A DNA stretch of 19,447 nt. Source: Nanopusillaceae archaeon (GTDB lineage Archaea > Nanobdellota > Nanobdellia > Nanobdellales > Nanobdellaceae). Position numbers and translations under genes: made by a program. This document shows, one piece after another, positions 6,505 through 6,618 of the stretch (the first letter of the stretch is position 1; the number at the start of each line of letters is the position of its first letter). The notes beneath the pieces are model-generated. The model was given only the letters and a program-made list of their open reading frames with translations, was not told the origin of the DNA and searched no databases. The stretch spans positions 1-19,447 of the forward strand of contig JAVYNJ010000011.1 in the NCBI GenBank assembly GCA_038735675.1, given 5' to 3'.

Positions 6505-6618
6505 ACCCTGCCTGCCATGCACTGGGGATTGATGAACCAGTTCCTCCGGGCAGGGTACAATAATGGGGAAGTTGGCTTGACCCTGAAGGATGATGAATAC
6601 GGCTACGCCGACTTTTTT
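6505..6618 (+). ncRNA. Candidate L7Ae-binding sRNA. It has an H/ACA-type guide hairpin with an ACA box, a second hairpin carrying a box D'/C'-like K-loop, and a T6 terminator.
   Basis: GC island with no credible ORF.
- **Hairpin 1:** lower stem 6505-6514/6547-6556; pocket 6515-6520 and 6542-6546; upper stem 6521-6525/6537-6541; K-loop GGAUUGAUGAA 6526-6536; ACA 6557-6559.
- **Hairpin 2:** stem 6571-6576/6607-6612 containing CUGA-AGGAU-GAUGA (6583-6596).
- **Terminator:** T6 at 6613-6618.

The ends are approximate. Confidence 0.55.

Follow-up and report, generated by a model that had tools for sequence, protein, structure and literature searches.

The analysed window, a contig of 19,447 nucleotides from a Nanopusillaceae archaeon, raises the question of what is encoded at positions 6505–6618 of the forward strand. 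This segment has about 50% G+C, compared with 25% for the contig as a whole. Measured over 100 nt segments, the G+C fraction is 0.50 at 6500–6599 and 0.12–0.25 around it (25.2% for the entire window), and the only non-coding islands of at least 46% G+C are a tRNA-Ala, a tRNA-Lys and the 6505–6618 element. On one side lies a gene for a XerA-type tyrosine recombinase (5597–6439, − strand) and on the other a gene for a YbaK/tRNA_edit protein (6603–7064, − strand), the final codons of which are overlapped, on the opposite strand, by the last 16 nt of the element. The source organism is a tiny archaeon of hot springs.

An initial annotation, made by inspection of the window, had described the island as an unannotated small RNA on the + strand that lacks a credible open reading frame, and on both counts we agree. 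Open reading frames of 50–63 amino acids do overlap the element, but its homologues differ by 1–2 nt insertions or deletions in a loop and a linker described below (the K-loop and the segment between the two modules), so that a coding reading is unsupported. Our reading of the whole is that 6505–6618 (+) is the gene for a composite H/ACA and C/D guide sRNA of about 115 nt in Nanopusillaceae, and we put the probability of this at roughly 0.75. Thermodynamic folding contributes weak evidence: with a z-score of −2.24 for the + strand and one of −2.62 for the − strand, it discriminates neither strand nor function.

Conservation and genomic context

The element is a real, conserved small RNA gene. 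It lies upstream of and divergent from xerA in all nine distinct lineages that carry it, a set that includes Nanopusillus acidilobi (L129, 2326–2443), Nanobsidianus stetteri, Nanobdella aerobiophila and NZ13-N. Its sequence has changed less than that of the adjoining xerA gene, with identities to the window copy of 76–88% for the RNA element and 68–85% for the xerA DNA. Beside xerA in the more distant XerA lineages (L133–L136; 49–56% identity) no copy was found. A covariance model of the nine-sequence alignment detected no second copy in the loci searched, and no lineage with the H/ACA and C/D modules apart was found.

The position of the element between xerA and ybaK, its overlap with the ybaK stop region and its constant proximity to xerA could also be those of a cis-acting element of a neighbouring mRNA, either a leader or promoter structure of xerA or a 3′ terminator of ybaK. 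We give this hardly any credence, since all of the motifs are read on the strand opposite both genes, the element is kept beside xerA although the ybaK neighbour has been replaced in Nanopusillus, Nanobsidianus and Nanobdella, and the complementarities to 16S rRNA that fit a guide RNA would be left unexplained.

The composite guide RNA gene would have its own transcription signals. Upstream, at 6470–6504 (+), is an A/T-rich region with a TTAAAAA(T/C)NTTAAA-like block that is kept in the alignment while the surrounding spacer diverges; we take it for a presumed archaeal promoter of the TATA/box A type. The sRNA promoters of Nanoarchaeum equitans carry TTTAAA about 26 nt upstream (PMC3491384). 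The T6 run at 6613–6618 (+), already pointed out in the initial annotation, is a presumed archaeal terminator, and most lineages have a pyrimidine-rich run after box D. The RNA would thus be transcribed divergently from xerA and end at the T6 run. A scan of the window for bacterial promoters and terminators was uninformative, the host being an archaeon.

The gene is unannotated in Nanopusillaceae genomes because Rfam thresholds miss it. At gathering thresholds, Rfam recovers only two tRNAs from the window.

The H/ACA hairpin

The 5′ half of the element forms a hairpin on the + strand. Its lower stem, H1, pairs ACCCUGCCUG (6505–6514) with 6547–6556 to give 10 base pairs including U6513·G6548; the 3′ strand at 6548–6556 is GGGCAGGGU, and G6514 may open for target pairing. 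The pocket is formed by a 5′ guide strand, CCAUGC (6515–6520), and a 3′ guide strand, UCCUCC (6542–6547). Above it the upper stem H2 consists of five Watson–Crick pairs between ACUGG (6521–6525) and CCAGU (6537–6541) and carries the K-loop GGA-UUGA-UGAA (6526–6536), a predicted L7Ae site. The K-loop would contain the sheared pairs G6527·A6535 and A6528·G6534, together with G6526·A6536, beneath a 5 nt cap. An ACA box of the ANA type (6557–6559) follows H1. From 6542 to 6556 is 15 nt, which becomes 14 nt when U6542 stays out of the pairing, a condition set by the best target; both the ANA rule and a spacing of 14–15 nt are known for archaeal H/ACA guides (PMC2377435). The sequence features that the initial annotation had listed for this hairpin, namely the 10 bp stem, CCAUGC, UCCUC, ACUGG/CCAGU, the loop GGAUUGAUGAA, ACA at 6557–6559 and the 15 nt distance, are all present at the positions given for them.

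Its assignment to the H/ACA-type guide hairpins, on the strength of the K-loop and the ACA box, is likewise borne out by the relatives. Across the nine lineages, four of the ten H1 pairs show compensatory double changes, and 95.6% of the lower-stem alignment cells are paired. When the partners were slid by one or two columns no compensatory pairs remained, and a shift of three columns left at most one. H2 is paired in all nine sequences, with one G–C to G·U change. In the K-loop GGA and UGAA are invariant, and the stretch of 4–5 nt that separates them is variable both in sequence and in length. The ANA box is ACA in five lineages, AUA in L001 and Nanobdella, and AGA in Nanopusillus and Nanobsidianus. 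CCAUGC is invariant in eight of the nine lineages and 6542–6546 in all nine; Nanobdella has changes in both guide strands (C6515 to G and C6547 to A).

The hairpin thus has what is expected of an archaeal H/ACA guide: an H1 of at least 7 bp followed by ANA, a pocket of about 5–11 nt per strand, an H2 of 5–6 bp with a K-loop, 14–15 nt between ANA and target, and bipartite pocket complementarity flanking an unpaired U-N. Its anatomy falls within the functional constraints measured in Pyrococcus (PMC2377435). H2 and the G·A pairs together are one or two pairs short of the 10 bp 'GA stem' that has been considered necessary for productive folds (PMC4652768). Judged by these features, which for the K-loop are seen at the sequence level, the hairpin is a convincing candidate for an archaeal H/ACA module. 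A linker (6560–6562), 2–4 nt long across lineages and unconserved in sequence, separates it from the 3′ half.

The predicted C/D module

The 3′ half had initially been described as a second hairpin, closed by a GUUGGC/GCCGAC stem, with a D′/C′-type K-loop inside and no evident pocket. The K-loop stands: CUGA (6583–6586) and UGAUGA (6591–6596) are both conserved, as boxes D′ and C′. The orphan hairpin does not, and the 3′ half is instead predicted to be a complete C/D box sRNA module that begins 3 nt after the ACA box.

The module can be followed along the + strand from box C, AUGGGGA (6563–6569), which is degenerate with respect to RUGAUGA and has an alternative GA register at G6568–A6569; RF00065 aligns its own box C here. 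The D′ guide, AGUUGGCUUGACC (6570–6582), is a 13 nt spacer within which GUUGGCUUGA is invariant in the nine lineages. Box D′ is invariant, the loop of the C′/D′ K-loop (6587–6590) varies in sequence and is 4–5 nt long, and box C′ is UGAAGA in L007. The D guide, AUACGGCUACG (6597–6607), is an 11 nt spacer and precedes box D, CCGA (6608–6611), which is degenerate with respect to CUGA and is CUGA, CAGA or CCGA across lineages. Among the features expected of archaeal C/D sRNAs are an internal D′/C′ K-loop, spacers of about 12 nt, and a guide–target duplex of at least 9 bp in which the modified nucleotide pairs with the fifth guide residue upstream of box D or D′; these three are seen here, with 4 nt between CUGA and UGAUGA.

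The terminal boxes escaped the initial annotation because they read AUGGGGA and CCGA in the window lineage. Three genera (Nanopusillus, Nanobsidianus and Nanobdella) have the canonical AUGAUGU/CUGA. L005, L006, L007 and NZ13-N have AUGAAGA/CAGA, a pair that also occurs in the expressed sRNA14 of N. equitans; in L001 box C is AUGGAGA. Position 5 of box C and position 2 of box D change together (U/U, A/A, A/C and G/C). The window copy retains five of the seven consensus positions of box C and three of the four of box D; in box C the fourth position, a critical one, is occupied by G. This A-to-G change removes a sheared A·G pair needed by the K-turn, and the terminal C/D motif may therefore bind L7Ae poorly, unless the G6568–A6569 register is used.

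The poor match of these boxes to C and D could be taken to favour an H/ACA guide followed by a guide-less GUUGGC/GCCGAC hairpin that displays an extra L7Ae K-loop, the more so as the 6 bp stem is possible in the window and the minimum free-energy fold pairs the region. The alignment speaks against it: the stem shows no compensatory change and three of the six pairs cannot form in two to five of the nine sequences, while conservation falls precisely on boxes C, D′, C′ and D and on the D′ guide. Both spacers, moreover, can pair with 16S positions at which N. equitans is methylated (PMC5389701). We consider a guide-less hairpin very improbable and retain the C/D module.

Predicted targets in 16S rRNA

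Targets were sought in a 16S and 23S rRNA pair of the Nanopusillaceae type, as distinct from the rRNAs of this genome itself. A genome-wide scan with the 1511mcR primer site matched only N. equitans, and the family-type rRNAs were therefore taken from metagenome contigs, which are placed in the family by similarity alone (81% identity to the 16S rRNA of N. equitans, together with A/T-rich flanks). The 3′ ends of these 16S sequences lack CCUCC, as reported for N. acidilobi.

The best site for the H/ACA pocket is 16S U1013 (Escherichia coli U1052) in GGAGG-U-G-CAUGGC, with 5 + 6 Watson–Crick pairs, a match that was equalled by seven of 2000 shuffled guides. Residues G6514–G6519 would pair with CAUGGC 3′ of the target U and C6543–C6547 with GGAGG 5′ of it, leaving C6520 and U6542 unpaired and opposite each other beside H2. 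The hairpin is accordingly placed as a predicted guide for pseudouridine at U1052 (E. coli numbering, as for the other positions below). The target first proposed, GAGGA-U-N-GCAUGG, has no counterpart in nanoarchaeal rRNA; its pocket borders had been flagged as uncertain, and the site found here lies one base off on each side. That earlier register, which has an H2 of 5 bp and both flanking guide bases in pairs, gave at best rRNA sites of 4 + 3 or 5 + 3 pairs, all including G·U, and was rejected.

It might be argued that the hairpin is an H/ACA-like scaffold which binds L7Ae and Cbf5 and makes no pseudouridine, serving as a 5′ stabilizing cap or as an rRNA-folding tether for the C/D module. 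The distance from K-loop to ACA is below that of 'productive' Pyrococcus folds (PMC4652768), the target match is modest (5 + 6 bp) and needs the unpaired C and U beside H2, and Nanobdella would lose one pair on each side if its 16S rRNA is unchanged there. In addition, a pseudouridine at the same site, that of the Pyrococcus guide Pab19, went unconfirmed in vivo in P. abyssi, for which Table 1 of PMC2377435 has a '?'. On the other hand, the stems vary through compensatory changes and the pocket strands do not vary, which implies base-specific pairing; the H2 length and the ANA distance lie inside the experimentally active range (PMC2377435), and a tether would need the same 16S pairing. A scaffold that makes no pseudouridine therefore seems to us distinctly unlikely, and we keep to a pseudouridine guide.

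For the C/D module, the D′ guide forms 11 contiguous Watson–Crick pairs with CGUC[A]AGCCAACC of the Nanopusillaceae-type 16S rRNA, with A1408 at position 5, and is predicted to direct 2′-O-methylation of A1408. Guide and target differ together between families, GGUGGC/GCCACC in N. equitans versus GUUGGC/GCCAAC in Nanopusillaceae. Am1408 has been measured in N. equitans, where the homologous guide is in sR13 (PMC3491384, Additional file 2; PMC5389701). The D guide is predicted to direct 2′-O-methylation of G1508 in helix 45: nine Watson–Crick pairs are formed against GGUA[G]CCGUAGG, which puts G1508 at position 5. By shuffling alone this match is weak and not significant (51 of 500). Part of the D guide, AUACGGCUAC, recurs unchanged in the D′ guide of N. 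equitans sRNA18, the guide credited with the Gm1508 measured in that organism (PMC5389701). The D guide has drifted in the L005/L006/NZ13-N clade, where it is one base shorter. All three predicted targets, U1052, A1408 and G1508, lie in the decoding region of 16S rRNA.

Comparison with known guide RNAs

The initial annotation had called a composite RNA of this kind unusual, which overstates the case: H/ACA and C/D modules on one transcript are known from Pyrococcus/Thermococcus Pab21 (Pf1)/snoR9, and both have been established as genuine in Pyrococcus (PMC2377435, PMC4652768). As in the present RNA, a single 5′ H/ACA hairpin with a GGA…UGAA K-loop and ACA is followed by a short linker and by the series of boxes C, D′, C′ and D, whose spacers measure about 12 nt, and the Pab21 K-loop GGAAUCGUGAA (RF00065 consensus) is the same motif as the K-loop of the window. 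The snoR9/Pab21 family, RF00065, gives a full-length match to the element of 33.8 bits in the window and 33.6 bits in the N. acidilobi copy (E = 1.7e-6), against a gathering threshold of 90. This was the sole Rfam match of the element, and no confident covariance-model match to a different family was found.

We regard the resemblance to RF00065 as an analogy in shared architecture rather than membership. All three guides and targets differ: Pab21 directs pseudouridine formation at 16S position 891, which has been reconstituted in vitro (PMC2377435, PMC4652768), and the snoR9 spacers are unrelated. Pab21/snoR9 belongs to Thermococcales and the window RNA to Nanoarchaeota, and for the fusion convergence is at least as likely as common descent. 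Either way, a Pyrococcus-type H/ACA and C/D composite would also exist outside Thermococcales.

The C/D half has its closest counterparts in N. equitans. The D′ guide of sR13, …GGCUUGAC…, is likewise directed at A1408, with the guide and target covarying between the families. Unlike the present module, sR13 is a stand-alone 54 nt sRNA with its own promoter and canonical boxes, and its D guide targets A1534 in the anti-Shine–Dalgarno sequence rather than G1508. That sequence is absent from N. acidilobi, the one Nanopusillaceae species examined, and from the family-type 16S contigs. The D′ guide of sR18, CAUACGGCUACC, has AUACGGCUAC in common with our D guide, and its position 5 pairs with G1508; sR18 is, however, a separate sRNA with this guide in the D′ rather than the D slot, and its other guide is directed at 23S rRNA. 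One gene of about 115 nt, in very small genomes, would thus combine guide functions that are split over sR13 and sR18 in N. equitans.

The C/D half had in fact been predicted. Seistrup et al. (2017; PMC5389701) proposed for a 'matching sRNA' of N. acidilobi a D′ guide to A1408 and a D guide to G1508, and this prediction is exactly the C/D module found here. The main text of that paper makes no mention of an H/ACA hairpin fused upstream, and in the N. acidilobi genome paper guide RNAs and their proteins go unmentioned. Both the layout, from Pyrococcus, and the C/D half, from N. acidilobi, therefore have precedents.

The H/ACA half shares its predicted uridine with Pyrococcus Pab19, which targets GAGGAGG-U-GCAUGG in helix 34 of the 16S rRNA, where the uridine is U1017 in P. 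abyssi and corresponds to E. coli U1052. Pab19 has strong in vitro activity at this site (PMC2377435; the target string is in the supplement of PMC4652768). It differs in having a much larger pocket, a 15 nt 5′ guide that pairs further downstream (GCCGCCGUC), an extra 5′ stem-loop, a true K-turn with an apical stem and no fused C/D module. The composite RNA would add a Pab19-type pseudouridine guide, of which no counterpart is known in N. equitans. Nanoarchaeota have so far yielded a single reported H/ACA sRNA, a 159 nt double-hairpin RNA of N. equitans (PMC3491384), which also has K-turn-type L7Ae motifs and ACA boxes; it differs in its two hairpins, the lack of a C/D module, other predicted targets and another genomic context. 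Homology to it was considered and rejected, the two having no sequence in common. The present hairpin is apparently the first H/ACA guide for Nanopusillaceae.

One particle or two

From the sequence we infer transcription, protein binding, the three modifications and the choice between one particle and two cut RNAs. In the H/ACA half, L7Ae would bind the K-loop, and Cbf5–Nop10–Gar1 the lower stem together with the ACA box; GCCAUG and CCUCC, the two strands of the pocket, would pair with 5′-GGAGG-U-G-CAUGGC-3′ of 16S rRNA and present U1052 of helix 34 for conversion to pseudouridine. In the C/D half, L7Ae would bind the internal C′/D′ K-loop and the degenerate terminal C/D motif, and Nop5–fibrillarin would methylate two riboses, that of A1408 in helix 44 under the D′ guide and that of G1508 in helix 45 under the D guide. 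With the P. furiosus Cbf5 sequence, verified against the PDB, as the query, a search gave 8000 matches, and the 120 matches listed were all from lineages other than Nanopusillaceae. A tblastn search for Cbf5 hit only L110, one of the non-nanoarchaeal 16S metagenome contigs, and none of the nanoarchaeal loci examined.

Two guide RNAs might merely be co-transcribed, cut apart and act independently, the fusion having no functional meaning. The sR13 and sR18 functions reside on stand-alone sRNAs with their own promoters in N. equitans, Pab21 appears on northern blots of P. abyssi in forms with and without the C/D part (PMC2377435), and the linker varies in both length and sequence. Nevertheless, the modules are adjacent in nine of nine lineages with a linker of only 2–4 nt, too short to accommodate an internal promoter or to build a terminal C/D stem, and the loci searched held neither separated modules nor a second copy. 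The terminal C/D boxes, furthermore, are degenerate only in the fused context, where the hairpin may compensate. We therefore think independent action somewhat unlikely, and favour a composite guide RNA.

A more ambitious proposal is that a single particle, with a pseudouridine synthase and a methyltransferase, would hold U1052, A1408 and G1508 around the decoding centre of nascent 16S rRNA and act as an RNA-based folding and quality checkpoint of the small-subunit 3′ domain in place of RsmA/Dim1; decay of the terminal boxes would be tolerated because the H/ACA particle substitutes for the terminal K-turn. We offer this as a speculation and consider it unlikely. To our knowledge RsmA/Dim1, the universal methylase and checkpoint, is absent from Nanoarchaeota, so that the three predicted targets in the decoding region belong to organisms without it. 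The checkpoint idea extends one put forward for N. equitans sR13 by Seistrup et al. (PMC5389701). The gene offers a testable handle on small-subunit maturation in reduced archaea, and it has cultured relatives in N. acidilobi and Nanobdella aerobiophila.

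A G+C-rich element beside xerA

The G+C-rich element at 6505-6618 (+) is best read, with a probability that we put at roughly 0.75, as a composite H/ACA and C/D guide sRNA. This agrees in part with the initial annotation, each of whose listed sequence features was found in the window where it had been placed. The window, a 19.4-kb contig of a Nanopusillaceae archaeon (Nanoarchaeota), has a G+C content of 25.2%, and the only non-coding stretches that reach at least 46% are tRNA-Ala, tRNA-Lys and 6495-6625. The element is flanked by the XerA-type recombinase gene xerA (5597-6439, minus strand) and the YbaK/tRNA_edit gene ybaK (6603-7064, minus strand), whose product matches a Nanopusillaceae MAG protein at NCBI with 100% identity. 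Its folding energy (z of about -2.2 on the plus strand and -2.6 on the minus strand) is unconvincing by itself; it is the comparative data, namely conservation, synteny and covariation, that settle that the element is more than chance.

Orthologous regions were retrieved via YbaK and XerA homologues from four metagenomic or MAG lineages (L001-L004, L005, L006 and L007) and from NZ13-N (L131), Nanopusillus acidilobi (L129), Nanobsidianus stetteri (L132) and Nanobdella aerobiophila (L130). In every one of these relatives the element adjoins the upstream side of xerA and is encoded on the other strand, even where other genes stand in place of ybaK. In an alignment of the window and eight relatives, identity to the window copy runs at 76-88% for the element, compared with 68-85% for xerA DNA. 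The A/T-rich flanks of the element diverge freely. The pairing of RNA and xerA is unbroken through rearrangement of the surrounding genes. On the far side, the window, L001-L007 and NZ13-N have ybaK-histone-MetAP-TruA, and Nanopusillus, Nanobsidianus and Nanobdella have the genes of ribosomal proteins L1/L10, sometimes together with an AbiEii-like gene; the L11-L1-L10 cluster of the window sits apart from the element, at 12312-14504. A more distant lineage (L136, XerA 55% identical) shares the TruA-MetAP-histone synteny of the window, with a small PF1765-like gene in the place of ybaK and a gap of only about 40 nt to xerA. No copy of the RNA was found between these two genes (L136 2237-2501), so that outside the core lineages of the Nanopusillaceae the RNA is either missing or has moved elsewhere.

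The ribonucleotide reductase beside xerA in the window (2491-5208, plus strand; 905 amino acids) has no intein. Its counterparts in L005 (3724-5618) and NZ13-N (L131 3442-5840) are about 1290-1300 amino acids long with Intein_splicing and LAGLIDADG domains, and the L003 gene was called in two pieces.

The H/ACA module and its predicted target

The proposal that hairpin 1 is an H/ACA guide module is borne out by a covarying lower stem, a K-loop, a conserved pocket and an ANA box. In the nine-sequence alignment the lower stem (6505-6514 with 6547-6556) shows compensatory double changes in four of ten pairs, with 95.6% of alignment cells paired; the signal is gone when the partners are slid by one or two columns, and at most one pair is left at three. 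The upper stem H2 (6521-6525 with 6537-6541) is paired in every sequence, and the GGA and UGAA of the K-loop are invariant around 4-5 variable nucleotides. Eight of the nine lineages have the pocket strands CCAUGC and UCCUC without any change, and the box 3' of the lower stem reads ACA, AUA or AGA, the archaeal 'ANA'. An H2 of 5 bp and a distance of 14-15 nt from ANA to the top of the pocket fall within the active range of Pyrococcus reconstitutions (PMC2377435).

Family-type rRNAs came from metagenomes searched with the predicted D' target in its 16S context, and the N. equitans 16S from a scan of genomes for the 1511mcR primer site. Five of the metagenome matches share about 81% identity with N. 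equitans 16S and are flanked by A/T-rich sequence. One contig (L050) supplied both 23S and 16S for the target search; these genes (1415-4350, plus strand, and 10290-11783, minus strand) are unlinked, as in N. equitans, since they lie about 6 kb apart on opposite strands.

For the pocket target first suggested, GAGGA-U-N-GCAUGG, the best rRNA sites offer only 4+3 or 5+3 pairs, all with wobbles. The idea that the pocket guides rRNA pairing is retained and its register revised, since C6520 and U6542 must stay unpaired beside H2. With both unpaired there is a single outstanding site in the family-type rRNA, 16S GGAGG-U-G-CAUGGC, with 5+6 Watson-Crick pairs, a match equalled by 7 of 2000 shuffled guides. 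By alignment its uridine corresponds to E. coli U1052 in helix 34, which is also the target of Pyrococcus Pab19 (target string GAGAGGAGGUGCAUGGCCGCCGUC; PMC2377435; PMC4652768 supplement).

The Nanobdella aerobiophila copy (L130 2331-2451, minus strand) departs from every other lineage at one position in each pocket strand (corresponding to C6515->G and C6547->A), and a U bulges from its lower stem. Pocket pairing would fall to 4+4 if the 16S of this organism is unchanged.

The C/D box module

Judged from its sequence, the 3' half of the element is a C/D box module and not a hairpin. The stem previously drawn there, GUUGGC (6571-6576) with GCCGAC (6607-6612), has no compensatory changes in the alignment, and three of its six pairs are broken, in two to five of the nine sequences. 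Conserved on the plus strand are the positions of box C (6563-6569) and box D (6608-6611), box D' CUGA (6583-6586), box C' UGAUGA (6591-6596) and, between boxes C and D', a first spacer with an invariant 10-nt core. The initial annotation had recognized the internal C'/D' K-loop and overlooked the terminal boxes, hidden by their degeneracy in the lineage of the window. They read AUGGGGA and CCGA in the window, AUGGAGA and CCGA in L001, AUGAAGA and CAGA in four lineages (L005, L006, L007 and NZ13-N), and AUGAUGU and CUGA in Nanopusillus, Nanobsidianus and Nanobdella; the AUGAAGA/CAGA pair is shared by N. equitans sRNA14, which is expressed. Over the lineages, position 5 of box C and position 2 of box D vary together (U/U, A/A, A/C, G/C), in keeping with the 3b.3n position of a K-turn. 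The window and L001 also have G in place of A at box C position 4, a change expected to impair the K-turn. Six of the nine lineages could adopt an alternative register (G6568-A6569 with G6571-C6608); those with the AUGAUGU box C could not.

Predicted methylation targets

The D' guide forms 11 contiguous Watson-Crick pairs with family-type metagenome 16S, CGUC[A]AGCCAACC, with A1408 at the fifth position. It is homologous to the guide of N. equitans sR13 (AGGUGGCUUGACU, for CGUCAAGCCACCC), relative to which guide (G to U) and 16S (C to A) are altered together. Am1408 has been measured in N. equitans (Seistrup et al., PMC5389701). The D guide forms nine Watson-Crick pairs with GGUA[G]CCGUAGG of the same 16S type, with G1508 at position 5; 51 of 500 shuffles equalled this match, a weak one when judged by shuffling alone. 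The AUACGGCUAC of the window D guide recurs unchanged in the D' guide of N. equitans sRNA18, the sRNA to which the measured Gm1508 is assigned (PMC5389701). Seistrup et al. also credit N. acidilobi with "a matching sRNA" for methylation of A1408, then G1508. As described there, this sRNA is the C/D half of the window-type RNA, already predicted for N. acidilobi; the main text makes no mention of an H/ACA hairpin upstream of it.

N. equitans sR13 targets A1534, part of the anti-Shine-Dalgarno sequence, whereas the window D guide is predicted to target G1508, perhaps because nanopusillaceae-type 16S has lost the anti-Shine-Dalgarno CCUCC. Nanopusillaceae-type 16S genes finish ...CUGCGGCUGGAUCUAGUUAAUUCCGCUGCAAUCCC (L085 9440-9500; L050 10230-10300, minus strand; L019; L051), and CACCUCC is absent from these four 3' ends, unlike that of N. 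equitans, which carries GGAUCACCUCCU. Of 23 ORFs in the window, none is preceded within 30 nt by a GGAGG-like motif. Loss of CCUCC has already been recorded for N. acidilobi (PMC10783764).

In one clade the D guide preceding CAGA is one base shorter (minus strands of L005 2605-2640, AUACGGUACCU; L006 3416-3450, AUACGGCGCCU; and NZ13-N, L131 2316-2350, UUACGGCACCU). These guides are complementary to 16S 1503-1506 and 1508/9-1513, and the duplex would therefore form only if A1507 or G1508 bulged out of the target. Either the 16S differs there or the pairing serves something besides canonical methylation.

Relationship to known RNAs and proposed action

At curated thresholds an Rfam scan gave no match at the element, a gene that these thresholds overlook. 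The one meaningful match of a permissive scan was RF00065 'snoR9', full length, at 33.8 bits (E = 1.7e-6; gathering score 90); the N. acidilobi copy scored 33.6 bits. RF00065 is a Pyrococcus composite of the 5' H/ACA guide Pab21 and the 3' C/D sRNA snoR9 on one transcript (PMC4652768, PMC3849170), so the architecture of the element, H/ACA at 5' and C/D at 3' in a single gene, is already known. We do not place the element in RF00065, because its score is under gathering and every guide sequence differs.

The transcript would begin within the A/T-rich block that is conserved upstream and run to T6. L7Ae would bind the three K-motifs, Cbf5-Nop10-Gar1 at hairpin 1 would isomerize 16S U1052, and Nop5-fibrillarin at the C/D module would methylate A1408 and G1508. 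That the two modules are co-transcribed yet functionally separate is a tentative alternative, somewhat unlikely in our estimation. It draws on the Pyrococcus composite, where whole and processed forms are both present, Pab21 appearing on northern blots both joined to the C/D part and free of it (PMC2377435). A single tri-valent particle that tethers helices 34, 44 and 45 about the decoding centre and replaces the checkpoint of the missing RsmA/Dim1 seems to us distinctly improbable. Of the composite guide sRNA that we favour, the kind is already known in archaea; within the searchable literature, the H/ACA half, the U1052 target and the family-wide fusion appear to be new.
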